A stretch of DNA of 61,193 nucleotides, filler included, from Hausera hauseri (Eukaryota): assembly GCA_046269625.1 (NCBI GenBank). It is 9 parts of 9 records of this genome, joined end to end, with 100 filler letters (N's around TTAATTAATTAA, not from the genome) between each part and the next. Parts side by side here need not be neighbours in the genome. Positions count along the whole stretch, not along the records: positions 50,067 to 56,544 come from JBJURY010095987.1; 8 more parts are not named here. One strand, 5' to 3'. Positions 2,763-61,193 of this stretch are shown piece by piece. The notes beneath the pieces were generated by a model, which worked only from the letters and a program-made list of their open reading frames with translations, was not told where the DNA came from and made no database searches. Both the position numbers and the translations under genes were made by a program. Position 1 is the first letter of the stretch; every line of letters begins with the position of its first letter.

Positions 2763-2839
2763 TCATATGAAGTTGATTTATACACCATTCGACAAAGAAT
2801 TAAATTCTGAACAAGATAGACCTATTAGAAAATTTTTAG

Positions 2840-6300: not shown

Positions 6301-6390
6301 GGGGGCGTTTATTTGGTTATTCAGCGCTAAGATTTCAGCGTTATGTGGTGTCAAAGGTGGTTGTAATGTGGCTAGGATTATGAACTAGAA

Positions 6391-9034: not shown

Positions 9035-12000
9035 CTACTCAGTTTTTGTATAAACTATACGTTGAACCTTATCGATATTTTGTTCCCTGCTATATTTACT
9101 AAAGGTAACTGTCTTGATTTGTTTGAAGTGCTGTTTAACTGCTTGCTGAAATGGTTGGGGTGAAGTTATGTCTTGATTTGACATGTGAGCAAGTTGAAAA
9201 CTGGTCGATATGTCATTTAGCATCTCTTTATGAGTTGGTGCTGATTTTAGGGTAGCAGGTTCAAGTTTAGGCAGATTGCAAGAAGAATTGAAAGAGTCAA
9301 GAAAGGTTGGTGAAGGTTCAGCTGAGGAATCCGGTGTGTCATTAACGAAGAACGCAGGTTTCACGTTAGTTATGTGCACGTTTTGTTCTTTTCCGTTTTT
9401 GAATATTGAATTTGTGTGTGAAGTAATGTTAAGAAATTTAAACGGTCCTAAATAGTGCGGTTAAAATCCAGATCGTGACGGATTTTTCAACCACACGAAC
9501 TTCACATTAAATAGTGAGTCAGGTAAATATGTTTTGTCGCCGTGTATTATTTTACAGAAAGCGACTCGACTTAGCCGGATGAAATGATTTTGTGCATACC
9601 TAATGGTTTCGTCAGTCGGTGTGTTGTCTAAATCGGTCAGTTCAAAAAGTGCACGAATTGTGGTGCCGAAGAGTGCTTCAGCGAGTGCGCAACCGGTGGT
9701 GGTAGATGGTGTGTTGCGCCACCCGAGTAATACGAATGGAAGGATGGTATTCCAGTTCGTATGTGTTTCGGCTAGAATTTTTAGGGAGATTTTAAGAGTT
9801 CGGTGAAATCGCTCCAATAAGCCGTTGGATTGGGGATGGTATGGAGTAGTATGAATATGGTTTATGCTCAATCGATTAACTAAGAATTTGAATAGGTTCG
9901 ATTTGAACTGGGGGCCTTGATCTGTTTTAATATAACGTGGTGAACCGAACCGACTAATCCAAACCCTTATGAAGGCATCTGCGATGGAGTCAGTGTTGAT
10001 GGATCGCAAGGGAACAGCCTCGCGCCAAAGAAATGCGCGGTTTATCATTGTTAAGATGAACTGGTGGCCATTATCAGAAGGTAATGGGCCAACAATATCT
10101 AGGTGAACTGATTCAAAACGGGATGTACAGGGGAAATGGAATAATGGTGGCTTAAGATGCTTAACTACTTTGAATTTTTGGCAAGCCACACAATGCCTAA
10201 CCCAACCCTGTACATCGAATCTCATTGATGGCCATGTGATGTGACGTTTGAGTAGGCGGAATGTTGCCTTCGAACCTGGGTAATGCAACGAATAAATATG
10301 GTTAAATGCTGTTTGTTGAAGAGAATGTGCCAAAATTGGAAAATGGTGCCCAGGTATCGACGTGTCCATGGCTACGCCATCAATGATTTAGATAGATTTA
10401 TATTGTTTAAGTATTTTAGTAGAAGGATTCTGAACCAATTGTTTTTTAAAAAAATAGGCATGACGCTAATTGCATTAACCGATCGTGACAAAAAATCCGC
10501 TATTAAATTATCTGTGCCAGAAATATGGCAGATTTTAAAGTTGAACGTTGACAAGTACGAAATATGACGTTCTTGTCGAAGTAAGGGATGCTTCATGTTC
10601 ATTGCGTGAACGATGGACTTGTGGTCTGTTTGAATGGTAAAAGACCGGGCGATAAGTAAATGTGAAAAATGTTTAAGAGCTAAAACGATGGCCAGGAGTT
10701 CTCTATCGAAGGTGGAATAACGGCATTCTTGTGGCTGGAGCTTACGTGAAAAGAATTCTATTGGTTCGTTTATTCCTTGAGATATTTGATGGAGAACCGC
10801 TCCGACGGCTGTTGCTGATGCGTCGGTTATCAGGATGAGATCGGCATCGGGTTTTGGATAATCCAAGATTTCAACGGTTTTAAGATTATTGCGGAGCTCA
10901 TCAAACTGGTTTAGAAGGTCTGGCGTCCAATATAGAGGTTTCTTTGGCCCTGATCCTAGTTGAGCGAAAGGGGCGGTTAACTGGCTGCAGTGCGGGGCGT
11001 ACTTATGAACAAAATGCAAAGTCCCGAGAAAGCTGCGCATATCAATTTTACTTTTTGGCAGTTCGATATTTCGTAATTGGTGAATCCTATCAGGCTGTGG
11101 ACTGTGACCGTTAGGCGTGATGATGTGCCCTAGGAAGTTGACTTTATCTTGAAAGAATGTGCATTTTGCGAAGTTAACCTGTAAATTGTTGTTATGCAGG
11201 CGTTGAAAAACGAGCTTAAGATGTTCAGCGTGTTGTTTAGGTGAAGATGATGCTACCAATATATCGTTGATATATGGGTAAGCGAATGGTAGACCTGAAA
11301 GAATAGAATCGATATGCCGTTGAAAAGTTTGGGCTGCGTTCTTTAAGCCAAACGGCATGAAGGCATATTCGAAGAGGCCAAATGGTGTTATTATCGCCGT
11401 TTTTTGAATATCTTCAGGCGCTACCGGTATTTGGTGGTAGGCTTTTTCTAGATCTATAATAAAGTAGATTGTAGTTTTATGCAACGAATGTAAGATGTCC
11501 TTTATCAACGGTAAACGACAAGCATCCATGATGGTGACATTATTAAGTTGACGATAATCGTCGCATGGTCGGAATGTACCATCTTCTTTTGGTACTACGT
11601 GAAGTGGTAAAGCCCAAGGTGACTTCGACCGGTGGGTTATTCCTGCTTGTTCGAGTAACGTGAATTCAGATAAGACTGCTTGTCGACAGCGTGGTGAGAG
11701 TAACCTGAGTTTTTACCTGATTGGCCGAGGATTCTCGGTCATGATGTGATGGAATGTCGAGCTAGTTGGTCTAAAAGTTGTGTCTTTTGTGATCGTGTGG
11801 AAGCAGGACTTAGTTATGTATTGCTGGATTTCTTGACTTAACGAGGCAAATGGCGTTGTTAATAAATTAGATGGTTGATCAATGGCAGGACTGGATATGG
11901 TGGATATTGAACTGTCTAAATCGTCTTTGTCAACGTTTTCTACTTTGTTACCATTCAATGGGAATGTAAAATTATCAAAATCAGTAGTGTTAAAATTTAT

Positions 12001-12746
12001 ATTTGCATTTAAATTAGGAAATAACATTTTTACTATAGGCATGACAAACGAGGTAGGATGCGCAACCAATGGAGAGTTATCTGTATACGTTGCATCTACT
12101 TAATTGTTTCTAACTAATCTATTGTCTTTACAGTCTATTAGGAGGTTGTAAAAAGATAAAAAATCGAAGCCAAGTATTGGTGACTGTGTGTCGGCTACGG
12201 TGAAGGTCCAGGTAAAAACGTCAGGAAAAGGCTGTAACATGAACGAGATTTTGGACATGCCGTACACACGTAATGCTTGGCCATTAGCTGTATATAATTT
12301 CTTGGATGACAGAGAAAGAGTTTTAATTTTGGTAGACAGAGGCAGAAGAGACCCTGCTGCTCCAGAGTCGATTAAAAAATTAATCGATTGAGTGGGCTTA
12401 GTTGCTATTAAGGCGTTTAGAGTAAATACGGCATAAGTACGGCTGTTACGGTGAAGATATTTGCCTGTGCCAGCATGCGCCGAAACATCTGGCGGCTTTA
12501 GCCGTTTTTTAAAGCTACAGGATTTAAATTGTTGGAAGGAGTAGGCTGTGAGGAATTGGAGCGGCTGATGAAGATGCAACCCGCAATGCAGTTGTGCGCT
12601 TTGGTGTTAAATTTATTGTGATATATACAGGCGATGTCAGGTCGTTTGAAATTAGGCGCATAAAACCTACATCCTAAGCAGCATTTATTAGTATTATTTT
12701 TGAATTTGGTATGATAGTAACACACCGTCGGTCGCTCAGGCGACCT
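9035..12746 (-). mobile_element. Near-complete CsRn1-type gypsy retrotransposon: gag C-terminus with two CHCC knuckles, protease, RT, RNase H, integrase; several lesions
   Basis: ORFs 12498-12725 (CX2HX9CX3C twice), 12100-12579 (FLIDSGA), 10372-11529 (RT with YIND variant, RNase H TDAS), 9461-10369 (integrase), 9035-9379 (integrase tail). Confidence 0.95.
12466..12510 (-). promoter_or_regulatory. gag-pol -1 ribosomal frameshift signal (A AAA AAC plus downstream structure)
   Basis: Heptamer at 12504-12510 in the gag frame just before the gag stop; pol ORF 12100-12579 is in the -1 frame; GCCG/CGGC stem starts 7 nt downstream. Confidence 0.75.
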
Positions 12747-17597: not shown

Positions 17598-18880
17598 AAC
17601 GAGGATTTCTGCGGTCAGCTGAAGAATACTTATGTTATCGCCAAAATTAACAGTTATTGGACGTGAGGGGTGTGAATTTATTATTCCATATACAACGGTC
17701 AATTTGCAATAGGCAGTTATTGAACATTTTGAAAATGACGATTGTTTTAAAAGATTCGACTCATGGCACGTACGTCAGTGATTGCTGGGTTCAAAATGCG
17801 TCGGTCCGTTTGGCAGAAGATGATGTGATTCGAATTGGATTCAGCGTCGGTCAGTACGGATTTCAATCGGATGATGTTGTTATTGACGATTTGGATGTTA
17901 TGAATCTCCCTTATACGACTGTTTCCGATACTCAGAGGATTGCGTGGCAACAACCACCAGTATCATCTCAACAACATTCTATTTCTAATGCAAAATTCAG
18001 TCGTCCTCAGAGTGCTAACATACTGAACGAACGTCATCTCACACCAACAGCTCCAGAAATAACAAGCGCAACAAATTCCATCCAGAGGTTCTATAAAAGG
18101 TCAAAGAATTATCATTACTGGGAACCCACAGTATTATCAGCTTCAAAGGAGTTGATAGACTAAAATCAATCGAACATGACTCGGTAGCTAAAACTCGCCA
18201 AATCGATAGTCTATTACAACAAAATGCTAAATTAATGCAATCAACTAATCCAAATCAAATAGACAATCTTTACAAGAGCATCAAACAGTTGATTGATGAA
18301 GTATCTGTGAAAGAGTCGGAAATCGAACGACTCCAGAGTATTGTTTGACAAATGAGTGAAAATGCCAATCGAATAAACATGAATGTATCAAATAATGACG
18401 ATGTGTCAAAAATTTGAAGAAAGTTTGAGAAAACAAAAAAGATCTTCATTGTAGTTATGGTTTTATCAATACTCTTCAGAAAAGTCTTAATTGCTGTGGG
18501 GAATCAGCTTCTAGTTTGAAACGCGATATTCAAACTCTCAACCACACGCTAACTGAAAAGGATATCAATATCGCTTCGTTAACTAGCAAATTGGTACGAC
18601 TTAAAAATTATGAAGAAATCGAAAAAGAGAAAGCGGAGAGAGAACGAAATGTAATTAACTTTAAATAGAAACTTAAAGCATCTGAATTAGATTGTATGGA
18701 AATAGCAAATGTTATGGAAAACGTAAAAGAAATCGACCAAGGAAACCAGTGATCTAAAACTTCAACTTAATAATGTAAAAAAAGCAAAAGCGAAATTACG
18801 TAACGATCTAGGCGAATCAAAAAAGAAGTTTGGAAAGTTCCGATCGAAAGTAATGGATGCTCTGTTGTCAAAAACGAACT
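17598..18880 (+). pseudogene. FHAD1: FHAD1-like (forkhead-associated domain plus coiled coil) intronless pseudogene
   Basis: Across frameshifts reads RGFLRSAEE / LSPKLTVIGREGCEFIIPYTTVNLQ*AVIEH / VLKDSTHGTYVSDCWVQNASVRLAEDDVIRIG, matching my recollection of the FHAD1 N-terminal FHA domain; long coiled coil with stops follows. Confidence 0.75.
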
Positions 18881-20170: not shown

Positions 20171-22124
20171 ATGTGGCAGGGCCTCGTTATTCATAAGGAT
20201 TCCCAGGTCACATTCAATCGAGGCCTTAGGGAATGTCTTAAAATTCGCAAGATGAAACGCAATTGGTCTCAGAACGAACATAAAGAAATTGAGATCCCGA
20301 AATTTGTCAATTACCTAACAAGATTCACACCGACTGAATTCAAATCTCGCGCTCATGATTTCGTTCCTTTAAGGGAGAAAATTGTCGTTTACTACGTCGA
20401 AATGAAACTCGAAATGGCTGATCAAGTAAAATTACCGGATGTCAAATTCTGTGTCCGATGTAATAGACATTTTATCAATGAAGATAATTTTCGATTACAC
20501 CAATCCCTTGATCATGCAATCCGGAAAAGAAAACATCCAGCAATCCTCCGGCGTCCAGATGTAACTATTCTGGATATTCGCCGACGGCCTACCGACTTGG
20601 ACCGTGTGGAGCGGAACACGGTAATACTGCTATTTTTCTATAACCCTACAAACGAATATAATTTTATTTATTTCATACATTTTATCACAAATCCTAATGA
20701 AATATTATACTCATGTATTCTCCTCTATATACACGCGATAAAAGCAATCGAGTTTAGATTAAGTTATTCCAAATTTCTTTTACTTAGAAGTGCTTTTACA
20801 CCAACGAAACATATGATACAAGGTCTATCTTTTATTTGTCATATACGGTCTCCAACTACCACTGAAGTGGCCACATTACCACCGTTATTTTCGCACGTAA
20901 AAGGTTCGTATGGCAACGCTGCTACTCCTGTATGGCAATTAATTCATCGAGCAACAGCTACAAGCTACGCCAAAAGTACTGCTACCGGTCATATCGTAAA
21001 TTTTAACGTCATAGTTGACAACATAAAGTATCTACCGGTCGAATCCCGAACACATAAGTTATATTTACATGCAACTCCAGAAGCGTGTATCTCCAGGGTT
21101 TCCGATGAATTCGCTAACGTTCTTCATGTGGGACGCTTCACCATTTGAATGGTCAATATATGCATCAGGTTTAAACAGCGATGTGCAAAGTGACCTAAGA
21201 TTTCTAACGTGGACCGAGTCACAATATCCAACACTAATGTTGATTGGAAACTTACAGCAGCAAGATCTTCAAGGTTATACGCAGTTAGTCAACTGTTTAA
21301 AATCAGAGTCCGCTACAGTTTCGTTAATATTTCGCGACGGAAAAGCCACAAGTGTTATATCCACAATATGTTAGGCTTCCACTCACGGCTAATTCTGCTT
21401 TACCGCCACAATGCGTATACTTGTTTTCTATCACTCAAATATCTTACAAAATGTACGTCCATAGTCAAGGATTATCTATAGAAGTAAAACTTCCGAGAAA
21501 AATAAATATGTTCTCCAAGTCAACAACAGTGACACCACAGTCCTTGACACTCAGTGCTCAATGGTTGCAGAAAATACATACGCCCAGACCGTAGTTACAC
21601 TTGACAAAAATATCACAGATGAAGTCCGAACCCCGTCACTAGTTTTATCAGTCGTTGAACCGGGATTCCTATACTTTCATATCTCACTGGCAGAGAATAT
21701 GTGGGTTTTCCAAACGGGCAAAGAAAATATTTATACCTTGACTGTGAAACAGTCTGATTCCAATACTTGTCAAATATACATGCCCGATAATACGCGTCTT
21801 GAACCCACCATTTCTGCGGGGAAGTGGGTCACCCCGAAGTTTGAGATTCGCCGCGGCGAGGCTGAGGTCTCGGCCGCCTACCCTATATCATTGGGTTGGA
21901 CGGCACTGTTCGCTGACGCCCCACGAAACGCCCCTGGCTACACGACCACTCCGTATTCCCTCTTCTTTTTTAAAAATAATAAACATATTTACACAACTGC
22001 ATTAACATACTTAAACACTGCGGTTATCTACAACGTCATCTCCACTTTTCTTTGCTCACCTGACTTTTACCTCACACATCACGGCTCCACGGTGCCGCCC
22101 GTTGGGACCCCGCAATCTTCTTAA
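20171..22124 (+). other. Cluster of unidentified ORFs: a single C2H2 zinc finger followed by beta-strand-rich, frameshifted ORFs
   Basis: CVRCNRHFINEDNFRLHQSLDH fits C-x2-C-x12-H-x4-H; overlapping ORFs 21069-21374 and 21561-22124; candidate GT-AG intron 20621-20787. Confidence 0.45.
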
Positions 22125-22658
22125 ACTTATATCCACCTCCACATACACTTCCGTATCCGCGGTAGCATGAACTCATCGCCAACCATAGATGAAAAAATCC
22201 TTGTTTCCTCCACCGGATAAATTTCTGGTGCACAGAACATCATCGAGATCAGTTGAACAAATCGATGGTACGGGAGTTCGCAATGACGGATATTCACAAG
22301 GAATAGACTGGTTGTTTGCTGACGAATTAACTGTCAAATTTCCAATATGTATAGTAGACTTTGGATCGAATGTTGTCGATGAATTGTTCGAATTACCAAC
22401 TCCCATTATTAAAGTATTCGATCGAATATCATTCAAAATTCCAGCTCGTAAACTAACACTATTGTAATTCGTTAAGTGATTAGAATAAGGCAACATAATT
22501 ACGCAGCAAAGAAACCTTTTTATATAAAAAATAGGTTCGTTACCAACATGAACCGTTTATAATTTTTTATTCGGTTTCAAATTTTTTACACCGCTTCTGC
22601 ATACCAATATTTAAACACCTGCCTTAATAAAATTTCTTATATACAAATCACCCATAGG

Positions 22659-23886
22659 GTGAATGTGGGTACCACATTACCCCCCGTGGAAATAGACACC
22701 ACGGATAAAACCACCATGAAACCAAAATCTGTAATACTGCTTCAAAAACCAACCCCTACTTCCGCTAATAACTCTTCGCCTACTACTTCTTCCGCTCCTT
22801 TCCCTCACTGCATCGAATTCTTCATTGGCAACCAAAGATCCAGCAAAATTTGGTTGCAATTCCATCAGTTGTGGCTACAGGCAAACAATATCACCAATTC
22901 CTCAACCAAGGCACACAATCTCCTCTTCTTACTCCCTAACAATATCAAAACACAAATTCACAACATTATCCAAATCTTTGAACTTTCTAACCCATACTCA
23001 CAGCTCTCCAACGCTGTTCTTAAAACAACAGAACCCTCAATGGACACCATCATACAACGCTTCTTTCACGACAATGCTATAGGCACACAACGACCATCAG
23101 AATTTTTACGCACTTCTTTAGCACATCTACACGCTCTCGGAGTCACTAAAGAACACAGTGCAGAACTATTGCGCCACTACTTTCTCGACGCGTTAACCAT
23201 CCAAATTCGGGCTCTACTTACCGTGGTGGAGGACTGCATGGCGCTTGAGAAATTGGCCGAATTAGCCGTTAAAACACACGACGTTCTACACTTAAACTAC
23301 CCACCAATCGTTTATGCGGCAGTTGCCACTACCGCTATACAAAACAACAACACATCAATATAGCAATAACTAAATCAATTACGTGCCGAAAATACAGCAC
23401 TACAAACAACAATCAACAATATAAACAATAAATTAAGTGAACTTTCCCTGTCCAGACGAAAGGATTTTGTCTCGGACCGCGCCCATTTCGCATCTAGAAA
23501 CTGGTCACAATCGCCTGCGCGGTCGCTTATCTGCTACTACCACAGCAGATTCAATAAGAATGCCAAGAAATGCTGCCTATGGTGCAAATCTTATAATGAA
23601 AGTTTTTCTTCAGACACCGTTGTTTGCATTAACCACGCAAAGTTTAAAAATCAAGCTTGTAAATGCATTCCAGGATGCACCTTCAAAACAGATACGAACG
23701 ACGAACGTACTATTTTTTCTTTTAATAGTCGTCCTAGTTCACCTTTTCAAAAAAACTAACTTTTAGACCATGCGGTGATTACTGACAGTTAAACAACTTG
23801 ATAATTATGGATGCGTACCCCTTGCCACTCATCAAGGACATCCTGCATCGCCTTAATTCAACTACCATTTATTCGACCATCGATTT
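22659..23886 (+). mobile_element. CsRn1-type gypsy gag (double CHCC) joined directly to an internal RT fragment
   Basis: Gag GTQRPSEFLR..LEKLAELA; CYYHSRFNKNAKKCCLWC and CINHAKFKNQACKCIPGC; AAAAAAC TAA; then TFRPCGDY*QLNNL..DAYPLPLIKDIL. Confidence 0.9.
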
Positions 23887-45362: not shown

Positions 45363-45806
45363 NNNNNNNNNNNNNNNNNNNNNNNNNNNNNNNNNNNNNN
45401 NNNNNNTTAATTAATTAANNNNNNNNNNNNNNNNNNNNNNNNNNNNNNNNNNNNNNNNNNNNTCTAAATCTCAAAACAATATTGCTTTAAAGAAAATTAA
45501 CCTCTCCAATTTCAAGAAGGCAGTCAGCATCAACAGGGAACACCCCATAGTTGACATCAGCGTCTGAATATTTCTGTTTTTTAATGTAAGTATTATTGAG
45601 GTATCTGAAAAAAAAAACACCTTTTGATTCTCCTTTTGATTTCTTCCAAGTCTAGTGATATTTTTTCTCCTCATTTATTTATTTGCTTTTCACTATTTGT
45701 TTATACACTGCTATTCCGTCCAGATTAAATATATCTGTTTTAAAATGTTCATCATCTGCACATTATTGTGTAAAGTCAAGGAAAGTATACCCATGCGCAT
45801 TTTTCC

Positions 45807-48800
45807 TTGCATCATGAAATACATCAACTAAATTGCCACAATGTTATGAAAAAGTACTTTGGCCATACGTACAACAGGGTTCAATATTATACATGCCCTA
45901 CATGTGACGTAGTGTGCCAAATCAATTATGAATACTTTTACTATGTCCATAAACAGGATTTAATTTTCTTCATCAAGTCGAAAAAACAAATATTCAGTAC
46001 CAATATGTCAATAATGACTTCCATGCCAAAGGAAAATAGAGGGTGCAGTTCATATGTGTATTGCACGTGTGTAATATACAACCCTCAGAATTGCCACAAT
46101 GCCATGAGGAGCTATTATGGACATAAATTTATCAGCATCATTAATTATATCTGTCCAGGATGTGAGCCTGTATGTAATAAAGAATACATACAGTTTTATG
46201 AAGAACACAGACATCATTTGACTGACTTTGCATCAAAGTCAAAGAAGACCATCTTTAATGAACATAAGCCAGTTGCACAGCCTGCAGTATCACGGCCTAT
46301 AGTACCATGGCCTGTAGCATCACAGCCTGCAGTACCACAGCCTGCGGTATCACAGCCTGTAGTACAGCCAGATGCAGGACTAAAACGCGCATCGGACGCA
46401 TCAGGCGCATCAGGTGTACCGCCTCCATCAAAGAGTCAAAGACTGCGGCCAGTTGATGCTGCGGCATTAAAGAAAAAATGCTGCAAATATTCCATTGATT
46501 CAACTAGTCAAACAACCATCAAGGAGTTACTGGAGTACACAGAGGAAGAAACAAAGGGGATTCTTCAGGACAACATAGCTGAGCTCAAGGCCATTAAGGA
46601 TAATATGAAACCTGAGGCCACGTGCGTCAATGTTGATGGAGAAGAGTCCAAAAGGGCCTTCAACACCAGAAATAGATCCATTTTTGAAGCCACCAATATA
46701 GTAGAATGGCTGCATGAAGAGCATACAAAGCTGATCCGTGAAGCTAATGAAAGTCAGGATAAGAAGAGCGGATGGACTCTGGCAACCACCGAGAGATTAC
46801 TTGTGTATGTTCACAAGTCTTCTCCAATGCGAGGCGGTACTTATATTCAGCTTCAGAAATGGATCACTAGTAAAAAAGCATGCGTCAATGTCCATAATAA
46901 TGACAACATATGTTTCGTGTATGCCATTCTATCAAAACTCGTACTGAATCAAAAACATGCAGCAGATCGAGTTTGGCTATATAATGATCTGAAGCATAAC
47001 TATGACTTCCAATGTATCATATTTTCTCCATCTTTAGATGAAATTAAGAAGTTTAGCCGAATCAACAATATATCCATCAACATAATTGGATTGGATGAGG
47101 ATGACAAATTTTATCCCCTGCAGATATATGATACTGAATTGGAAGATCATAGGGATCTGCTGGTACTATATGATGGAGAAAAGAAACATTTTGTTTGGAT
47201 CAAGAATTTTGAGCGTCTAGTCAGATCCCAAATTACGAATTATCATGGACAAATAGAATTATGTAAAAGATGTCTGTCTCGTTTTAGTAGTGATACAGTA
47301 TAGGACAAGCTTGCAAAGCACAAAATGTACTGCAACAACAATTACTGTGTAAGACCAAAATTTCCCAAGGAGGACTATATTGAATTCAAGGAGTTCGAAA
47401 AAAAGATCAAGGTCCCAATAGTTATCCATTTCGACTTCGAAGCTATTCCCGGCCAATTTACAGATGCACTCCCATTCCTCAACATAGCAGCACAACGGCA
47501 TACCAATATCATGAACTATCATGGTGTTGCATGTATGCTAAAGGACTGGTAAGTGAACCATTTCTATTCAGGGGTCCAGGCGCAGCAGCACATTTCATGA
47601 AACGACTTGAAGACACAGCTCATGAGCTTGAAAACATGCTTCATCAGGATAAGGGTAATATAAGCATGTCGTGGAAACAAGCTGAAGAATGGCGCACTGC
47701 AACAACATGTTATTTGTGCGACAAGTCTTTTACCAACGAAAATCATAAAGTCAAGGATTATTGCAATTTTACAAGCAAATATCCAGGAGCAGCATGCAAC
47801 AACTGCAATCTACGCTGCAAAACATGTACATACATGTGCCTGTAGTATTCCACAATCTCAGTGGCTATGATTCCCACATCATTGTTCGGGAACTGGGTAA
47901 TATCGATTCTTAGACAGCTTTCGCTTCATGAGTTCGTCACTGGATAGTTTAGTGAAGAACCTTCCTGCAGAAGAACTCAAGGAGATGAAGCTGTTCTTCC
48001 CCACTGCATTTGACCTCCTCAAAAGAAAAGGCGTGTTTCCTTATCACTACATAACCTCATGAGAAACAGTGGATGAAACCTCATTGCCGGACAAGAAGGC
48101 CTTTTACAGTATCCTCCCTGATTGCGATATCAGAGATACTGATTACCAGCATGCCCAGAATATCTGGCATGCATTGCAATGCAGAACAGTAAGGGAATAC
48201 AGAGACATATACCTCAAGACAGACGTTCTGCTGCTCACAGATGTCTTTGAGAGTTTAGTGATGTTACAATGAAGAGCTATGCGTTGGATCCGGCTCATTT
48301 TTACGGCTCCAGGGATGAGTTGGGCAACTATGCTGAGATATACCGGAATAAGGCTGCAGATCATTAAGGATTGCGACATGATCCTTATGACCGAGAGAGG
48401 CATTAGAGGCGAAATATGCCAGGAAATTCATCGGTATACCGAGGCCAACAACAAGTATATGGCCCAGTATGATCCATTCAAGGAATCCTCATATACATCA
48501 TACCTTGATGCCAACAACTTGTATGAATATACAGTGAGCGCCCCATTGCCGTACGATAACTTCAAATTGGTCGAGAATCCTGAAGACATTCCTATATTTG
48601 ATCTGAATCCCGCTGGGGATACGGGGTACATACTGGAGGTGGATATGGAATATCCTGCTTCCATCCACGCAAGTCATCAACAGCTGCCTTTCCTCCCTGA
48701 GAGCAGGTTTCCGCCCCATGGAAAGCATAAAGAAGCTGCTCTGTCAACTGGGTAATAGGGCGAGGTATGTAGTTCACTACAGCAATCACCAGCAAGCAGT

Positions 48801-49741
48801 TAGATATGAACTCCGCATAAAAAAGATCCATAAAGCCCTCCAGTTCAGTCAGTCCATGTGGCTGCAACCCTACATAGATCTCAATACCAAGGTGCAGCAA
48901 ATGCCAAAACGATTTTGAGAATGACCAGCTCAAGCTTTACAACAACTCGGTCTTTGGCAAGGCGATGGAGAATATCCGGAACAGGATCAACATGGAACTG
49001 GTATGTGACTGGAGGCGAGCAGAGAAGCTTATTTCCGAGCCGAACTTCCACAGCAGCATCATATATGCTGAGAACTTGGTCAGAATTCATATGCTGAAGA
49101 CATCCTTGGTATTCAACAAGTCCATATATGTGGATATGGCAATCCTTGACCTGTCCAAGACCCTGATTTATCATTTCCACTACGGCATCATGGTCCCCAA
49201 GTTTAAGTAAGTGCAGCTGATGTATATGGATACTGGTAGTATCATCTATCAGATCCATACTGAGGACATTTATGAGGACTTTGCCCAGTTGGCAGAGAAT
49301 ATGGATACCTCGGACTATCCAAAGGATCATCCCAACTATTTAATTGCCAACAAAAAGGTCCTTGGGAAATTCAAAAACTAGGTAAATGGAGCAGTCATAT
49401 CAAGATTTGTATCTCTCAGATCTAAAATGTATGCTCTAGACGTATGTAGCCAAGTAAAAAAGCGGGAAAAAGGGATTCAAAGGGCTACCTTAGCCAAGAA
49501 GATCAGTTTTGAAGACTATGTGACAGTTCTGCATGAGCAGACTCATATTATTTCAGAAATTCGAAGGATCCAATCTAGGAATCACAACATCCATACAATA
49601 TTTCTGTATAAGAAAAGTTTAGATTGGATGAATGACAAGAATAAGATCCTGAACGATGGAATCTATACAATACCTCACGGACACGTGGCATTGGAAATAT
49701 TGTTATTCATTGTTATTCTTTGTTTACTAAATGTTGTATAA
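45807..49741 (+). pseudogene. Polinton/Maverick- or adintovirus-type protein-primed family B DNA polymerase with an endonuclease VII-like insert, decayed
   Basis: GGTYIQL..KKACVNVHNNDNICF; HFDFEA; CYLC..KVKDYCNFTSKYPGAACNNCNL; FHNLSGYDSH; KGVFPY; YLKTDVLLLTDVFE; YLDANNLY; KLYNNSVFGKAMEN; YMDTGS; many stops and frameshifts. Confidence 0.92.
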
Positions 49742-50066
49742 AAATATCGTGTTGTCTTCTTGATCAAGTGCTAGGATCTCTTAATTACCAAGAAATTTGA
49801 ATTAAAAAAAATCAAAAAATCGATCAGAATCCCAAACTGACGTTTTTGAATTTGAAACCTGTGAGAGAAATAACCATTTCCCCAATCAAAAAAATCCCAA
49901 AAAGTAAAAATCAAAAACGAGCCTGAAGAGCAAGAATCCAGCTACACAAATTCGAAAACCGCATTANNNNNNNNNNNNNNNNNNNNNNNNNNNNNNNNNN
50001 NNNNNNNNNNTTAATTAATTAANNNNNNNNNNNNNNNNNNNNNNNNNNNNNNNNNNNNNNNNNNNN

Positions 50067-51330
50067 TTAATTCCCGTTTTTTGTCATCTTCATTGTACCT
50101 TATGTGGCGATATTGATCAATTGCTGGTAGCGTTCTTATAGCAACAATCTTTGAACTATCTGAAATCTCTATCCTAACTAAGTAATTTGTATTCGGTCTT
50201 AGTTTGTTGCAAAAATTCCGTTTATTTGTTTCATATATAACAACTTTTTTATGAGATTCTGTACAAGTTATTATTATATCTTGTTCATTTATTGTGTTTT
50301 GTAATATTATTTCAATGTGATTTATATAGGGCTTTAGTTTAAATTTAATATGGAAGTCTTTCATCCATTTTACATAAAATGCATGTTTATGTAATTTGTG
50401 TTTCTGCATTTTAATCTGGTTTTGTGGGTTAGGCTGAACTGTTGATTTTCGATCTCTATCTCTGTTTCTGTTTCTATCTTGTTCTCCCCTATCCTTAATG
50501 GTGGGTGTAGTCCATAGTGTTGACGTTATCGTCTTTTTTTCTAAAGGTGGTGAGGTGAAACGTGGCTTAGCAAAAGCCGGAATAGGTATGTTGGGTTTAG
50601 CTGCGAAAAGAATAGGAATATGATAAGAATGCACTCTAATATATTGTTTATTTTCCATTGTTTGATATGCCTCTAAACGGATTCTGTACCAGACATATGA
50701 ATATTGTGCAGCATGAACGAGTATCATTCCGCTCAAGATAACAATAATGTGGTTGTTTTATAAATGTAGAGATTGGATTAAGCCACATGCTGATTTCAAA
50801 TTCGATGGGTAATAATTGTGTGATGCGGAAATTCATACAAGGTGGTTGTCTTGTGAGATCGATACTGGAAAATTCAATATCAGGCTTTAGGAAATGAGCG
50901 GTAAAAGGATTGCGCGAAAATACATCAGAGGTTTTCAAGAAATTCATCTCCTGATAAGTAAGAACGCGAAAAATCATATTTGGTTCAAAATCTTTGGCAT
51001 CGGTGTTATTCACTTTCAGTATTACATAGTATGTATATGTCGTATCATAACTGACAGAGCAGCAGATTTTATTGTGTTTCAAAAATTGTGCAAACTGAGG
51101 AAACGTTTTACTGTGATATAAAGACAAAATTTACTTTATGGTACAGTGGTAAAGGTAAATGAGTCCGAAGGCAAATAATGGGTTTATTTGTATCAATGTT
51201 GATAATAGTGGTGTGTTCTACCCAATCAGTAAATGGTATTACTGTAGTATTGGTTTTGTAGCTGTTACCGGTATTACGAAAGCTAGAAAAAAGAAGAAAA
51301 TGATAGCCAAACCACGACTCGGAATGGGAC
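50067..51330 (-). pseudogene. Extra ORF after integrase: hydrophobic signal/TM-like segment and two fibronectin type III-like segments
   Basis: GLAIIFFFFLAFVIPVTA in the integrase-tail frame; PPCMNFRITQ..FEISMW..WYRIRLEAY; AFYVKW..LRPNTNYLVRIE..IRTLP. Confidence 0.5.
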
Positions 51331-54300
51331 GATCAGGGTAATTTTCGACGGAACTCAGTGAGTGACTTTTGCACATTGCTGCCACTTTGGGCTCTTCTGT
51401 TGTAAATGATTCTTGCTCTGTTTCGTGTATGAAGTCATTANNNNNNNNNNGTTGGACAGATACAGCCTCGTATTTATCAGGTCTTTTCTGAATAAAAAGC
51501 GTTTGTGGACGCACATCAACCACTTTGTACGGTCCTTGGCCGGTACGTGCTAATTTTAACGATTTGCCTTTCTTCACAGCAGGATAGTGAACCATTATAT
51601 AATCTCCAATCTTGTATGTGGCCGAGCTTTCTTTTTGAATTGCTTTTTATATCCAGCTCTGTATTTTTCTTCAAATTGTTTAGCTTCGCGTTGAAAGTAT
51701 TCAAGTCGTTTTAGCAGAATCTGATATTGATCATCCATGTGATCACTGGTTAACAAGGATGATGGTAGTAGTTCCGTGTCTAATGGTAGTAAGGGCAATC
51801 GGCCGAACATTAATTCAAAAGGTGAATGATTGGTACTTTTAGTAGGCGTTGTATTTATTGCAAAAGCTGTAGTTTTCAAATGGTTATGCCAATCTTTTTG
51901 ATCGTTCAACCATTCCATTGCATTGTGGATGGTATGAAGTCGTTAACAAATGTTTGCACTGGAATATTTTTGACAATTTTTCGAAGAATTCGCTAATGAA
52001 ATACGGTGATGGTCGGTTAATAATTGTTTCGGAGTACCTAATACAGCAATAATTTCGTAGAAAAAGGCTTCAGCAACTGTACTACTAGTCATGTTTTTTA
52101 ATGGCACTAGTATAACATAGCGAGAATAATAGTCAACAAGGGACAGTATATATTTGTATCCTGAATCTGGAGCTGGGAATGATCCGGAGATATCCATTGA
52201 ACACACTGCCATTGGTTTCCGTGCTTCCGGTAAGCTTCCTAGAAATGGTCTTACACGAGATCCTCTATCTTGTAGCACGTATTTTACATGAACGTACTCA
52301 TCCTTCAATGTTTATTTATGTGAGGCCAGTAATATTTTGCGGTTATACGCTTCAGTTTTATTTAAAGACGGATGTCCAGCTAGATGTGAATCGTGTTCTT
52401 GTAATATGACAGCCTTAATGGCCGGTGTGGGTACAAGAATCAGTTTTCTTTCTCCAACTCTTAGTCGTAAAACCCCATTTTCAATTTCCAGATTTTTCGA
52501 TTTTTCTCAAAATTTTTTGGTATGACTTGATATTGGATCATGTACTTGTCCGTTGATTACTTGCTTGACTTGAACAATAAAGGGATCTTGATTTTTCAAA
52601 GTTTCGATGTTGCGTACTTGAATTTGGTGTTGTTCTTGCAACATTTCGTTAATAATTTTCTCATTCAATTGTTTGTCATTCTATTTGTCTAATGGTTTGT
52701 AAACAGCGGCTGCTATCCTATCATATGGCATTCTCGAAAGCGCATCGGCATCTAGGTTTTCTTCGCCTGGACGATATCGGTATTCAAGATCATAATTTAA
52801 AAGTTCCAACTTCCATCTTTGGAGTCGACTGGATACATATCTATTGTCTGAGCGCAATGATAAGAATGCTTTATGGTCAGTAAATATTATGATTTTATGA
52901 CCGTAAACGTAATACTCGTAATGTCGCAACCCATCGCGAATAGCTAATAACTCTAATTCAGTGGTAGAGTATTTTCGTTCTGCATTATTTAAACTCCGTC
53001 CTCCGTAGGCGATTACGTGTTCTATTGTTTCGTCTGGGTTTTGTTGAGCCAATATATAACTAATTGCTTTTATGCTAGCATCGGTTTTCAGAATAAAGGG
53101 CAACGAAAAATCTGGGTATCTTAATATCGGTGTTGATACCATTCGTTTCTTGATCTCGTCAAATGCATTTTGATTCTCTTCTGTCCATTCCAATTTTTGA
53201 TCCTTAAGAGCTTATATTGAGGTTGGTTAATTTCTGCAAAGTTAGGTATAAATATAGCATACAATCCTCCCAAACCTAGCCAGGCTTTTATTTCATGTAC
53301 GTTGGTTGGTGGGTGATATTCTAAAATTTTGGATATCAAATTAGGATTAGTTGAAATTCCTTGGTTATATACAACAAATCCAAGATATCTAACTTCTTTC
53401 CTACACCATTCACATTTTTTCGGATTTAATTTTAATTTCGCAAGACTAATTCGATCGAATACATCTTTCAATTCAGCTAAATGCGCAGTCCATGTCTTGG
53501 ATGCGATGGGAATATCATCAATATATGATAATCCACGTACTCCTTTTAGTACTAGGCGAATAAATTCTTGAAAGAAGGTGGGTGCTGTTTTCAGACCAAA
53601 CGGCATACGGGTGAATTGGTAGACTGCCGTATGCGTCTTAAATGCAGTTTTCCATCTGTCCTCTTCAGCTACAGGAATTTGCCAAAATCCACTTTGTAGG
53701 TCTAAAGTGGTGAAGTATTTACAATCTTTCAATTCATCAATGATATCGCGATTTCTAGGAATCGGATAAGCATGATTCATCAAGTGCTTATTCAGGGTAA
53801 CAGTTTACACACAAACGATGTTTAGTCATATTGGCTTTCTTAGCCGTAACTATGGGAGAAGGCCATGGCGATTGACTGGGCTCTATAATTCCTTTATCGA
53901 GCATTGCTTGGATTTGTTCCTGGACTTCCTTTTGGAGTGCTTTTGGAGGAGGGTACCATTTTGGTATTGGTTGTCGTAACAAATCTATTTTTCCTGTTAA
54001 TGGGTCAATCATGAATGATAATTTGAATTTGACTAGATCAGTTCGTCCGATATCTGTTTCATTCTTTGCAAAAATGTCAAGATATTCATAAGTGAGATCT
54101 GAGAAGTGTTCTAGATACTCATCTGATAGATTTTTCTTCGCTTTTGCGAGAACAATACTCAACACATCTACAACATCTTGTTTTGAGGTGGATACCGTTG
54201 CGACATGATTATTAGAAATCTTACGTCGAGTTGTTTCTAAGGCTTGTCCAATTTTTGTTTTTGCGAATAACGTGATATATCTCGAAGTTGGGTTTAAAAC

Positions 54301-54910
54301 TTCTACCAGAATAGTTCCTCCGATTACATTAACACACTAATGAGGCATCATTATTTTATTTCGCAACGTTTTTGGTATAAACTCAACAATATTGTTATCT
54401 GAAAAGGCTGTTCTTGCATGTATAACTATTCGAGAATTGGGTGGTATCTTCTCGATATGTCCCAACCAAATGTCTGTTTCCTTGTTATCCGGGGGTTTAT
54501 CCTCATTGTTTGGACAAATTGATCCTGATTGTAAATTTATGTGCACTCCTTTTAATTTTCGTAGCACGTTCATACCTAGAATACATCGAGGATCTAGGGT
54601 GATCATTACGTCGAAAGTTATTTTAACTCTGTCCACAAACCCATGGTTCACTTTTCCAGTATCTATATGGTTTACTACATTGTTGGAAAGCTGAAGTGGT
54701 ACCGGGTGAGTCTTTTGTAGCCAATTTTATTTGAGATTGTAATTCTTCTGTAATTGCATGTTTTGCAATTAATGCAACATTAGCTCCTGTGTCCACCATA
54801 GCATTCAGGTCAAAAGTATCAAAATGAACTGTTGTATGGGGTCTATTATCTCGGAGTAGTTCCAGAAATGTCAGTACGTCGTTATGATTATCAATGTGTG
54901 GTTCCATCAT
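51330..54910 (-). mobile_element. Gypsy pol (protease, RT, RNase H, integrase) of a second lineage, decayed
   Basis: MVDTGAN; PSQSPWPSP; LDLQSGFWQI, MPFGLK, SYIDD; KTDAS, YSTTELE, TDHKA; MDISG, VDYYSR, SPFELMFGR, GPY. Confidence 0.95.
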
Positions 54911-55498
54911 AGTGTAACTAGACGAACAATGTTAGCGCTGTTAGATAAAATGACCTTTAAACTTTCTAACGATTGGGCATCGGTTTCTACCATTTTGTTC
55001 TTATCCTTGATTTCCGTTAAGTCTGGATAACAGCTGACATGTTTCGATGTTGTTGGTTTATTGGCTAAATGCACTCCTTTGTCTGATTGAGTTTCTATTG
55101 ATTTATTATATTGATGATAAGGTATTGAGGGTAACATTCCCAAACTAGGTGAATTAGGCAATGTCACTCGATTATTTTTCATGGTCTGTGTGATATTAGA
55201 TTGCCTGATCTCCTCTTTGGTGTATTTTGGCAAATTTCGTAACTTTATATATTTTATTTTCGCGTAAGGATCCGTCAAATCTGTTAAATTTGGTAATTTA
55301 TAAGTAGGCAATGTTTTATTATCATATGGTGCATCCGGTATTTTATGTTTATTCTTTTTCTTTGGCTTCATAAACTTGAATTTTCTCCTTGTATCCTTAG
55401 GAAGTCCTGTTGTAGGATAATATTTCGGAGTATTGCTGTCATCTGAACTTGATGAATTGTCCTTTGGGGATTGTCTCTACCTTGTAGTCAACATGTTT

Positions 55499-56544
55499 TT
55501 ATAATTTGTTTCGCCATTGTTTCTCATGGTAGGCCTTAATAAATTTGCCAAGTGGAGAAAATAGTGCTCCTATTATGCTCAACGACATTCCTGTTAAATT
55601 ATAAATCTCATAGGCATTTAATACGGAATTGATGCAGACTTTCAATGTTTGTATAATGAAGTATATGGCCAGAAAACCTGAAGCTACTTGGCCAAATTTC
55701 AAGAATCCTCCCCACATTTTATACCACAAATTTGAAACGATTTTAGAATAGGCGTCAGGTGTCAATAACCTATCCAATTTTCCTTCTCCGGCTGTCGTCG
55801 ATTACTCGATGTATTCCACGATTTACTATTTGTTCTTTGTCTAGGATATGCTAAAAATTTCACAAATGAATCAATTTTCTTTTTGCTATATAGTGCTGAT
55901 TTGGATACGTCGGTAAACATATTGGTTTCGATTGCATGTTTCAAGTTCGTCATAGTTATCTTTGGTTTTTCTTTAACTCTATCACGATTCGGTAACCTGA
56001 CCCAGAGGTCTTGATTATCATACTTGATAAAGGGCTTAGTGCTGAACAATTCTGAATCTCAGTAGGTATTGTATGTAGTGCCAAGAGCACCCTAGTGATA
56101 GGCTGAACGTATCGGATTTCCTCGTTATATTTGACCGGTATCTTCGAATAACATGGAGTGCCGGTAATCAACGGCAATTCTAATCGTTTGCATTTATAAG
56201 AATAACACTTCTAGGACTCTGCCTGGGATTCCTTCGCCAAAAGGAAGGGTTATTGTGATCATCTCTGGGTTGGATGCTTAAATGGCTAGGCGATTTCTTA
56301 GAGTTTCACAATTCACTACAAAATATTTGAATTGTTTCGGAATATATTTCTTCGATTGTTTTGTGGGTTAGATAGAATAGAAAATCATCTCGATTTGCGA
56401 TATAATCGGCAATATTTACTAATTGAGCTCTATTATTGGGAGAATTATCGGCTCCTTTAATTTTTCTGATATAAAATTATCGTAATTCGTACTGAATACT
56501 TTCTGCCCACATTTTGTAATTTCATCCTGTTGTATGAATTTAAC
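55499..56544 (-). pseudogene. Envelope glycoprotein resembling chuvirus G / herpes gB-type retrotransposon env, C-terminal part
   Basis: CGQKVFSTNY; YKCKRLELP..CYSKIPVKYNEEIRYVQPITRVL..C; ALYSKKKID..LAYP; membrane region WGGFLKFGQVASGFLAIYFIIQTLK..SIIGALF. Confidence 0.75.
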
Positions 56545-57605
56545 NNNNNNNNNNNNNNNNNNNNNNNNNNNNNNNNNNNNNNNNNNNNTTAATTAATTAA
56601 NNNNNNNNNNNNNNNNNNNNNNNNNNNNNNNNNNNNNNNNNNNNTCGAGGTATCATGCATTTTTATGTAATAACGCCTTATCACATATTTTTATAATTAT
56701 TTAGTCTTTTAGTTAGTTTATGAGTTTTGGAATTTGGTCCCATATGGGTGCCCGATATTATACATCATTTCTACTATTTCTAAGATATAAATAACTGTGT
56801 TCCACAAAAAACATTTTAAAATTTTTTATTAGCTTTGATGAAAAAAATCTTTACAAATTTGCCAGTTTCTTTACTACAATTAAAACTGTTTTGCGATACC
56901 CCAATTAATTTTGTTTGCATTCGGCTTTACCTACGGCTCTCAAAAACCTCTTAGAACCGCCACATGTGAAGCTACTGTTTCATATTCAATGAACTTTAAT
57001 TAAAATATTAATTTAATTTAAAATATAAATTATTGGCGTGTTCGACTCAGATATCAATAAAACTCATCATGACAAAAATTTTAGCAGCGGTAATTCATTT
57101 TTAGCCAAAAGGAAATTTGATTTAAAAATATTTAAAACAATTTTTTAAATTATTAAAATTATTTAATTCCATAGTGTTGATATGACCGAACTATTTATAG
57201 AAGGTGCGCGAAAGTTCTACTTTAAATATGGAATTCCTGTGCATTATTTTTGAAACTTTGTATATGAAGTGAGATTTTGAAGTTGTACAACAGAATTCTG
57301 TTTGATTTCATTTTTTGTTCTTTAGTGAATTGAACAATACTACAAATTTGTCCTTATCAAGGGCTACGGCAGAAAATGACAGTGTTTATATGATTTTTCA
57401 CCACACTTTCCGTATATCATATCTGATTTCTTAAGCATATACCAATTTTCGTATAAAATTTCGTCGATAATGTTTGACGGTCCGCTTATTAATAATACAG
57501 ATTGAAAATTCACAGCGATAAATGCTTCTTGCAAATATATTTATACTTGGTTAAATATTTGCAAATTATCATCCTTAGATTATAATTATTATTGTATCTT
57601 GAATA

Positions 57606-58838
57606 AGGGTGTGGGGACAAAAAATCCGTACAATTTTAGTTTTACTGGTAATTAGGAATTCTTAGAATTAGTTTACATTTAGTTTGTTTCCGTGAATTTT
57701 TATGATACTAAAATTTCATTATTTCATGCATTTGTTTTTATCAGACGTGGTGACAATAATGGAGAATTTAAATCAAAGTGAACGTCGTAGATTGATTGCC
57801 GAGTTTTACCAGAATCATCAACAAATGAAGAAGTCTTTTACCATTAATCATTTTATTATGATGGGAGTTGCTAGACAAACAATCTATGATGTTTGTAAAC
57901 GTGCCTATTCATGTTTGCCATTTGAAAGAAAGAATTAATCGGGGAGGATTGCAAGAAAAATTCCAAACAGAAAGAGGGAATCTCTGGTCAGTGATGCTCA
58001 TGGTAAACTTGGTGTTAGTTTAAGAAAATTGAGAAGAAAACATCATATTGATAAGAATTATGTAAGAAATATTTTGAAGCAGTAATGAGTTACATCAGCT
58101 CCTAAATATTCAGAAAAACAAAAATTTGAACAAAAATCGAAACTGAGAAAACTTAGTGACAATGAATTTTCACCAGCAAAAGGTTTAGAAATATCATTGA
58201 CGATGAGTCGTATTTTTCTGCAAATAATGAGTCATTTTATTGTAAAAAGGAAAAGTAATTTGATCCTGAAGTTTATTTCAATAGACACAAAAGGTTTAGT
58301 CAAAAATTGTTAGTGTGGCTGGCGATTTCTTCTCGTGGTCGCTCTTTGCCGTACATTTGCCCATCAGGAAATTCAGTAACGGGTGAAATGTACGAAAGGC
58401 AGTGTATAAGAACTAGATTAACGAGTTTCATAAGGAAACATCATTCTGATGGCAATTTTGGGTTTTGGGTGGACATGGCGACGGTCCTCTACGCCAATCA
58501 AGTTGTTGATGCATATAAAGAATTAAACATTCCTTTCAATGAAAAAGCCAGAATTGTCCCAAACGTTCCTCAACTTCGGCCTATCGAACGATTTTGGAGA
58601 AATTTAAAAAGCGATGTGTATAGTGGGGGATTGGAGGCTAATTCACATAAAGAATTAAAACAAAGAATCCAGTGCATATTGCGGAAGAAGAATAACAGTA
58701 CTTTCTTTAATTTAATGAAAGATCTGAAAACAAGTATGAGAAAGGCAAGTAGATTTGGAGCTGATTGTGTCATTTAACAATGTATTTTCATATTGTATTT
58801 AATAATAAATCTGTACGGATTTTTTGTCCCCACACCCT
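57606..58838 (+). mobile_element. Full-length Tc1/mariner-superfamily DD37E DNA transposon (1233 bp)
   Basis: Perfect 27-bp TIRs AGGGTGTGGGGACAAAAAATCCGTACA (57606-57632 and 58812-58838) flanked by TA on both sides. Confidence 0.95.
57759..58777 (+). pseudogene. DD37E transposase, inactivated by stops and frameshifts
   Basis: IIDDESYF; FWVD-(37 aa)-E in PQLRPIERFW; HTH-like N-terminus (GVARQTIYDV). Confidence 0.9.
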
Positions 58839-59462
58839 TATTAGCTGCCAAATTTATACATTAGCGACGCAATTGACAATTAGATATGTACTCTGTGCCT
58901 GGGAAAGACATTAATGATCAACTATTAATCGAATATTACTTGACAAAGCAGTGAACATTTCATGATACAACATCACCTAACCCGTTGAATATTAGTGGCA
59001 CATGGACAGAAAAAGTCACAGAAGTTTCACAAAAATGTCGCTTATGTATGGATGATTTTTGTATAACATTTTTCATAATATTCGGCACAAAATTCTGAAC
59101 TTGCTTAGTATTCAATACTTTTATTGGAACGTGATTCCTTCTTCAAAGAATATTGATTTATCATGTTTTGTTAGATTTTGGGTTGGGCCCTAACTTCTCC
59201 CACTATCTAACAATAGTTTTTAATATTTTTGTAGTGCAGGTTAGGTTTACCGTTATAGGTAAATCAGGATGTGCCTTACTAATTAATATACTGTGCCGGT
59301 ACTGCGTGCGATGTCCTCTGCAGATATTTAAAAGAATTCTCTCCTAACTATATAAGTTACACTGGATTTTAAAACCTTAAGGTAGTCCAATCACCCTTAA
59401 GGGCCGAAGAAAAATTATAAAAGATTTTAGAAAGAAAAATATATTTTTACAAATAACAATTA

Positions 59463-59982
59463 CGTTCTAGCGTTCGGTATTAAATATAACTTTCGAAACT
59501 GTCTGCAATATATGCGATACGATAACTTATCGAATTCGTCGGATTCGGAACACTTCTGTTCACCTTCCAATATCGAATACCGTTGACGGAATACCACCGA
59601 AACTTTCTGCAATAACTGCGGTAATAACAATTCTCTCAATAACTATTTCGCTTCTAAATCTTTTCGTTCGAGTCTAAACCCAATTCACTTTCAAGTCAAC
59701 AATGACTGACTGACTGTGAAATCCGTCGGCTTATATACTAACTAATTTGCCGATTACATAATTTTCATTTGATGTAATATCGATTAAATTCCATTTTCTT
59801 CGATTACAATTAGGTTATTTACAAAATTTTTAGCTTTTCACATATTCTTCTGATTACATAATTCATATCAATTTATAATAACTACGAATTAGCAATACAT
59901 AACATTTCAATCGATTACAAATTATCCGATTTACGATAGTGCTATACAACCAATGTACAATTCTATAACATTTCTCCTCCCT
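59463..59982 (-). mobile_element. Polypurine tract (59971-59982) and LTR starting at 59970; distal end approximate
   Basis: AGGGAGGAGAAA|TGTTATAG; internal TATATAA followed about 25 nt later by TCAGTC repeats (initiator-like). Confidence 0.6.
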
Positions 59983-60134
59983 GAACGACACCTCGCATGT
60001 GCGATTGCGTCAGTAGAGGTGGCGTCGATTTATTGTCGGCGCAGCAATTCCAGTCTACTCCAAAGATTACTGTCGTCAACTGGCTCGGTTTCTAACGCAT
60101 AACTCGTACTAGGCTGGCTCGGAAGAGGAACGGA

Positions 60135-60356
60135 TCAGTTACATTCTCCATTCGAAAAATATTTTAATCCATCTGCCTCGGCTCGGCATACCGGGCATGT
60201 CGTTTTCCCGTTGTCTAACGTCCAGGTTTCTAAACACGTGCGACAGTATCTGTGTCTACACGCTTGGTTGTCGAGTTTAACATAACCTTGCCAGATATCT
60301 TCGTTACATACTGGACAAGTGTCTTCGTTCTCATTCGTATTCTCGTCGCTGTCCAA
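60135..60356 (-). pseudogene. C3HC4 RING finger ORF just upstream of the polypurine tract
   Basis: CPVC..CRHRYCRTC..W..CPVCR; no ATG in frame; the frame continues past one TGA to about 60030. Confidence 0.8.
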
Positions 60357-61193
60357 GTCGACTTTGGGTAATATCTGTATTCGTTCGAATGAAAGTCCAT
60401 CTTGATCGTGTTAGAGTAGGGGTTATCTTATTTAACCTTTACATCACTCCAACATATAAATTGACCAACTGTATCACTTATTTCTTAGGTTCTTATCTTT
60501 TACCATCGTTTATTACTATCATTAACCTTACTTTGTCGTAGTGTCTGCTCATCTAATTGTGCTTGTCGTTCCTGTTAGGCTTCTGCTAGTTAAGTATTAC
60601 CATTCTTCATATCTTATAATGCCTCAATGACAAATATGATTGATTGTTAATGAGGTCTGATTATTATGAGCAACAGCTAGACTTTGGATTGTACCTTAGT
60701 ATGAATATTTGCTTTAATATCATCTAGTCATCAGCCTCTATCACTATGCTCTAACAAGTGGTTACTCGTCTTCTCTAAGAGTCGCTATCTAACTACCCAT
60801 TAACTCAGTCTTTTACGAGACCATCTATACATGAGCAAACATGTATAATCTCTTCATTTGAATCTGATTTTATACGCAAAATATACTTCAATTTTCATCC
60901 ACTCATTGGGGCTAACCATAGTCTTACGATTATTCTCATCGGTTAACGTTATTTATTTTCATCTCTACTTCCATTAAGATTTTGAACTATTCTTATAACG
61001 AATAACTATTTCTTTCCCCTATAAATTATTATTGAGAATTCATATATTTATCGAGTTATGTTCGTTATTGTGACACGATAATTCATAAATAAAACAATAT
61101 CCATTGGTCTAAGCCGTTTATTCATAAATAAAATTCAACTGTTTCAATTTTTGCATTAGAAATAAAACTAGAAATATATTTTTAATATATTGC

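Follow-up and report, generated by a model that had tools for sequence, protein, structure and literature searches.

An env gene placed ahead of protease on a contig of Hausera hauseri very probably comes from a Burro-like, high-copy Ty3/gypsy element with GAG-ENV-POL order as a trait of the family, of which this contig carries a truncated and decayed copy. The window, i.e. the whole stretch of DNA analysed (61,193 nucleotides of assembly GCA_046269625.1), strings together nine short contigs with identical spacers between them, and the element lies on the minus strand of the 6.5-kb contig at 50067-56544 (JBJURY010095987.1). There, env is followed by a coding linker of about 600 nt and then by protease (PR), reverse transcriptase (RT), RNase H (RH) and integrase (IN), an arrangement of the original prediction that Pfam matches and open reading frames (ORFs) confirmed. 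The env-protease junction is a feature of a lineage and not a new order; the original prediction took the order as unknown, and it has been published for Burro (Burro section of PMC6431247) and for errantiviruses of nematodes, bryozoans and flatworms (main text of PMC13524379).

Env, linker and pol of the H. hauseri copy

Position 56544, which had been read as the start of env, is the end of the contig inside env. It is followed by an assembly spacer (N44-12 nt-N44, 56545-56644; an identical one stands at 49967-50066), and about 265 positions of the env profile and everything upstream of them are missing from this copy. Both ends of the element fall beyond the contig. Because the contig is cut inside env, upstream gag and LTRs are unseen rather than absent; gag and LTR of the family lie outside the sequence analysed. 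The description of env as standing where gag should be was misleading, given that in a complete relative gag is found upstream of env, beyond the point where our contig ends. No direct repeat of at least 30 nt was found within 50067-61193, no repeat or purine tract plus TG in the contig of the element, and no Rfam match or marker gene in the window.

The env region (55499-56544, minus strand as for all features of the element) represents the C-terminal 60% of a gB/chuvirus-type (class III) protein, with an ectodomain in several frame pieces and then a membrane region. The latter piece (55801-55499) matches PF24664 at E 1.8e-18, and Pfam missed the ectodomain when read in one frame because the ectodomain changes frame. 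When a profile of six relatives was run against the 1358 six-frame pieces of the window, five env pieces were found at E of at most 1e-4 and a sixth at E 0.34; all six are colinear with the profile, at positions 266-616. Identity to the relatives P0157 and P0137 is 26-38%. The env fold was read from the model of a relative, L001, and not from the H. hauseri pieces: its ectodomain model (pLDDT 82, 31 sequences in the alignment) resembles chuvirus-type glycoproteins (E 3e-35, TM 0.66-0.76) and herpesvirus gB (E 5e-13), and through this model the proposed comparison with chuvirus G and herpes gB gave a match. When the env sequence profile was searched against solved structures, 28 of the 30 rows returned were herpes gB, with E values of only 0.19-2.2. 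A word-index search with the membrane piece passed none of 132 candidates, an env piece had no match in phage records, viral contigs or metagenome contigs, and the alignment of the relatives' env found none of five in viral contigs.

Between env and protease is a basic Pro/Lys-rich ORF of 189 codons (54907-55476; 14% K, 9% P, net charge +16) with a YPDL motif. This length was reached in none of 20000 shuffles, and the linker is real coding DNA. The claim of about 600 nt of basic coding sequence therefore stood as to the ORF, but not as to its continuity: a stop closes the env frame just past the anchor, the linker is in a different frame, and the protease is back in the env frame. From the FGQ of the env anchor to the DTG of the protease there are 298 codons with the net frame kept (122-382 residues in relatives). 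The YPDL motif lies about 77 codons ahead of DTG, and a YP motif is found 30-62 residues ahead of DTG in 8 of 11 relatives; YP also occurs in the tail of a consensus of 31 env sequences, mostly free-standing. This motif may be akin to late-domain motifs. Many other frame breaks occur in the copy, including stops and frame changes in Pol, and the copy is dead. Env and pol cannot be read as a single ORF in this copy, which has a stop behind its anchor and changes frame on either side of the linker.

The protease (54560-54931) is in two frame pieces with DTG at about 54793, recognised by RVP and by tblastn to P0126 and L001; its Pfam match is weak (RVP E 0.0015, below cut-off) and gains support from its DTG motif and from being colinear with relatives. 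The region between protease and RT core (53805-54560) has its best matches in env-fused polyproteins, with P0272, L001 and L002, all env-fused, at ranks 1-3 of 145 matches. It is followed by the RT core (53190-53804; RVT_1 E 7.4e-30), RNase H (52681-53211; RT_RNaseH_2 E 6.7e-33, RT_RNaseH E 8.7e-31) and a broken integrase with zinc-binding, core and C-terminal parts (51455-52440; Integrase_H2C2 E 0.017, rve E 4.4e-8), whose similarity to relatives extends to 51455 by tblastn. The env profile detected no second env in the remaining 1.4 kb of the contig.

A search with RNase H gave distant gypsy Pols only among the 120 listed of 301 matches (1872 candidates), as did a search with RNase H plus integrase (46 of 7989), and the closest protein among the matches listed is about 51% identical, on RNase H. 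When scores of six Pol pieces were summed, env-fused proteins ranked 1-4 and 6, in a comparison where most competitors had been chosen by likeness to the H. hauseri Pol. Trees of RT only and of RNase H only did not group this Pol with the env-fused proteins. In a partitioned Pol tree of 51 taxa it shares a long branch with four Pols that bear chromodomains, adjacent to six fused proteins (87), and an AU test (5000 replicates, p about 0.2) rejected neither Pol topology, the comparison set being unnamed Burro-like relatives. Judged by sequence, the H. hauseri element is a divergent cousin of the env-fused relatives.

Env-fused relatives and other copies of the family

A HMMER search with the env anchor piece returned 226 proteins, 150 of them listed; together with 5 cluster members, 155 were examined and 147 aligned. 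A protease motif follows the anchor in the same protein in 12 of the 147 (10 clusters at 90%), while 7 are long without such a motif and 128 end after env. By Pfam, env then protease was found in 9 of 16 proteins chosen by length and, among 4 further proteins scanned, in P0272 and P0274; P0157, P0272 and P0274 carry env-PR-RT-RH-IN in one protein, and P0238 has zf-CCHC ahead of env. The record of P0157 bears the name of a bacterial MAG, which was taken as contamination. P0121, a WD40 protein, and four similar rows were rejected as env relatives on matches that are short and split into several stretches.

Scanning metagenomes with the relatives' alignment left 2 of 90 stretches, L001 and L002. 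The latter has a closed ORF of 3703 aa with the order Gag-Env-PR-RT-RH-IN, including two zf-CCHC, a ubiquitin-like domain and two proteases; L001 has a similar domain order in an ORF open at its start, and no LTR pair was found within either. The H. hauseri copy is colinear with both and with the env-fused relatives. Hence the predicted gypsy lineage with a gag-env-pol polyprotein order is supported by intact relatives that have this order in one ORF, and, instead of a unique junction and gag-pol-env in intact copies, the relatives share the junction in gag-env-pol order.

In a FastTree of the env anchor (17 tips), the H. hauseri env joins all 12 fused proteins with support 0.885. In an IQ-TREE of 68 env sequences it is sister (75/86) to a clade of 18 tips, itself supported at 92/92, which is made up of 14 fused and 4 env-ending proteins.

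Additional modules were seen in the relatives. Protease-like repeats, two to six in number, separate env from RT in several of them (P0238, P0274, P0172, P0137 and L001). Ankyrin and C2H2 domains were also found in P0274, and L001 (10617-12107) and L002 (12085-13473) each have a further ORF downstream that encodes an exonuclease domain of the RNase T type.

Other copies were sought in a public run, X1, which contains the stretch under study and may be the source of the window itself; contigs were aligned at 80% likeness, and no RNA run was among the public runs listed as containing the stretch. A total of 7525 contigs tile all 30 bins, with a summed depth of 70-6690 against about 10 for a single contig without differences (54795-55291). 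At several of the frame breaks of the H. hauseri copy, other copies differ from it in length. This tiling and depth, together with the length differences, show a high-copy family in which many of the breaks are damage in the H. hauseri copy. Only 4% of the contigs run on into unlike sequence, and none of the 6 loose ends listed (of 1033) falls between env and protease. The stretch from linker into protease is covered by a 498-nt contig that shows no differences, and multi-copy contigs of diverged sequence can be aligned over the two points where the linker changes frame. In the middle of the linker the depth drops to 102; the contigs are short, and none of the multi-copy ones listed reaches from env to protease.

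Coding sequence behind the integrase and the rest of the window

Just past the integrase, a hydrophobic stretch like a signal peptide (51257-51313; hydropathy 2.39 over 19 residues) precedes coding pieces at 50067-51130, which are cut by the contig end and include a fibronectin-III (FN3)-like module at 50328-50167. With a profile of seven post-integrase segments from relatives, picked by eye and built without H. hauseri sequence, this module was the best of 1358 pieces (E 5e-7), and the Atlas lead for the post-integrase piece was fn3 (score 0.80). Its pairwise BLAST with L002 was not significant (E 0.16), and Pfam fn3 had no match in 4 members of the module. In P0157, P0272, P0274, L001 and L002 a related module and then a membrane anchor stand behind the integrase; a hydrophobic leader was scored in P0157, P0272, P0274 and L002 and recognised by eye in L001. 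The L002 module was modelled as two FN3 domains (pLDDT 81, 4 sequences), with a Foldseek E of 1.9e-8 to LAR FNIII 3-4 and, by VIA, Z 9.3 and an rmsd of 3.4 over 94 residues to an fn3 domain of collagen XX. In L001, a second signal-FN3-like-anchor module was also seen inside the polyprotein, between protease repeats (about 4750-5320).

This second surface protein behind the integrase is apparently undescribed so far: the module is unmentioned in the Burro section of PMC6431247, and no mention of it was found in the main text of PMC13524379, while earlier Burro papers may show it. A tentative proposal, with the balance of probability well against it, is that particles carry two surface proteins from one polyprotein, a gB-type fusogen ahead of Pol and a tandem-FN3 type I partner for attachment or host modulation. 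In this role the FN3 protein would be comparable to gD and gH/gL, which serve herpes gB in that way. A complex prediction for L001 env with the FN3 module scored 0.00 and gave no answer. The main text of PMC13524379 raises the entry route of gB-only errantiviruses as an open question, and, if the proposal is true, the FN3 partner would answer how these enter cells; as a candidate for how gB-type retroelements attach to cells, the second membrane protein is open to testing. The range of the lineage would also be wider than reported if its host were not a flatworm.

Other contigs of the window hold remains of several kinds. Remnants of two related gypsy pol genes, alike at about 79%, and a gag-like ORF with DUF7041 were found at 2840-4693, 9461-12606 (minus strand) and 22563-23363 (plus strand), and no env was seen with these ordinary gypsy remnants or the DUF7041 ORF. 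A fragment of dynein stalk (27953-27153, minus strand; PF12777, E 9e-6) ends at a purine tract plus TG, as does a related copy 3.1 kb away (25163-24336, minus strand); it looks like a piece of a host gene carried by an LTR element. A RING finger ORF (60410-60135, minus strand; Pfam E 1.9e-8), on a contig other than that of env and pol, is followed by a purine tract plus TG at 59982, similar to the 3' end of an LTR element. Weak matches to FHA (E 0.0016) and to a NUP210 Ig-like domain (E 7.6e-5), at 17651-18163 and 21465-22124 (plus strand), are possibly host exons. The contig at 28775-45362 (16.6 kb) is made up of a diverged satellite that has a unit of about 63 bp and forms higher-order repeats. 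Broken pieces at 45774-49741 (plus strand) were taken by eye to resemble a Polinton-type DNA polymerase B, with no Pfam match on four pieces, and a 15-bp Pro/Gln-rich repeat lies at 46261-46377. A remnant at 58259-58777 (plus strand), without Pfam match, presumably resembles a Tc1/mariner transposase, likewise by eye.

Proposed expression of the polyprotein, alternative explanations and known systems

In the relatives, one ORF encodes Gag (CCHC), accessory domains, a signal stretch, gB-type Env, anchor, tail, protease(s), RT, RNase H and integrase, and continues past the integrase with a second signal stretch, FN3 domains and a second anchor. From this order we infer that the internal signal would send Env into the ER by co-translational insertion, and signal peptidase would free Gag from Env. 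Pol would stay on the cytosolic side, tethered to the Env tail (the 600-nt linker of the H. hauseri copy would be this tail) until the protease cuts it loose. With Pol tied to the Env tail, the enzymes would be brought to the budding site by Env and not by a Gag-Pol fusion; such hanging of Pol from a cytosolic tail would be a mode of enzyme packaging unlike Gag-Pol fusion. The second signal would yield a separate surface protein, and Env would fuse the particle with another cell.

In a different reading, env and pol are separate ORFs, the stop after the anchor is genuine, and read-through, frameshift or splicing gives rise to Pol, with a lower Pol:Env ratio as the result. The stop right after the anchor and the other frame of the linker speak for it, as do the divergence of the H. 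hauseri family from its single-ORF relatives and the 4 of 18 sister-clade sequences that end after env. But this copy is full of other breaks, the 298 codons between env and protease preserve the net frame, other copies vary in length near both frame changes, and 14 of the 18 sister-clade sequences are fused while the remaining 4 may be fragments or broken copies; we consider separate ORFs quite unlikely. The junction might also have arisen by chance, bringing together env and pol of different elements through nested insertion, deletion between tandem copies or misassembly, which would fit an assembly of short contigs, a Pol that is not nested among the fused relatives, and the lack of a listed multi-copy X1 contig over the whole junction. 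Yet the same set of relatives is indicated by env, by the pre-RT region and by the post-integrase module, no env was found behind the integrase in the 1.4 kb left, the contig has neither a repeat nor a purine tract plus TG, and X1 contigs cross from linker to protease (498 nt) and, among diverged copies, over both frame changes. Such an origin is very improbable and largely refuted.

The linker could finally be a very short gag in an ENV-GAG-POL order like that of oribatid mite elements, an order on record in the main text of PMC13524379; its basic, nucleocapsid-like composition and its position ahead of protease agree with this. Against it, the linker has no CCHC knuckle in any frame and no Pfam or Atlas match, its best E to five gag regions (mite gags not among them) is 0.08, and the four mite rows of PMC13524379 carry an F-type env. 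Moreover, the relatives have an equally basic tail at this position and a true gag upstream. The probability of a short gag is close to negligible, and the linker is best read as the cytoplasmic tail of Env or a spacer before protease, in agreement with the GAG-ENV-POL order that we prefer.

Among known systems, the Anakin elements reportedly have env located after pol. They are BEL/Pao elements with a chuvirus glycoprotein of the same env family, PF24664 (excerpt of Dezordi et al. 2020), and they differ by their BEL/Pao Pol from the H. hauseri element, whose Pol matches gypsy-type proteins and whose env is upstream, with none past the integrase. Troyka was rejected as a match: an excerpt of PMC12440569 states that no Troyka encodes env, and the H. 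hauseri element has one.

GAG-ENV-POL errantiviruses with gB-type env occur in Nematoda, Bryozoa and Platyhelminthes (Chary and Hayashi, eLife 2026; PMC13524379, here by its main text and supplementary file 2), where they do not form one clade, and ENV-GAG-POL order was found in two mites. Of the features that define errantiviruses there, the H. hauseri copy has the Ty3/gypsy PR-RT-RH-IN order, an HSV/gB-type env (PF24664) and an env about 0.6 kb upstream of pol (limit 2 kb), and gag upstream of env is present in the relatives L002 and P0238. By eye, the relatives' env resembles six Schmidtea 'C1a' rows of supplementary file 2, and the first residues of the H. hauseri env resemble the ends of these rows; the C1a cysteine region is missing from the H. 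hauseri copy. This copy is broken, whereas PMC13524379 retained intact copies only. The words 'polyprotein', 'fused' and 'fibronectin' have no occurrence in its main text, and its figures may show a single ORF or the FN3 module. The oribatid mite elements differ in having F-type env where that of H. hauseri is of the PF24664/gB type. Non-canonical nematode ERVs, with env/pol order flipped and env from an RNA virus glycoprotein (Sacco et al. 2022, cited in PMC13524379), are similar by description.

The closest likeness in organisation is to the giant gypsy elements Burro and GYPSM1 of planarians. According to the Burro section of PMC6431247 (Arkhipova and Yushenova 2019), these have env in frame between gag and pol, in an ORF of about 4900-5100 aa with MATH, BIR, BCL2, ubiquitin-like and ankyrin domains, and the Env of Burro is homologous to mononegavirus fusion glycoproteins. 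The H. hauseri element shares with Burro the PR-RT-RH-IN order, env ahead of pol and a high copy number; its order and net frame fit an env in frame with pol, yet the stop and two frame changes intervene. Of the Burro-type extra domains, a ubiquitin-like one is present in L002 (E 0.018) and ankyrin in P0274, and Pfam found no MATH, BIR, BCL2, ubiquitin-like or ankyrin domain in the 6.5-kb contig, which starts within env. The differences are that the H. hauseri Pol lies outside the clade of six fused relatives, adjacent and not nested, and that it has one protease where several relatives have two to six. By its gene order, the H. hauseri element is a further, divergent and formerly very successful case of a kind on record since 2019.
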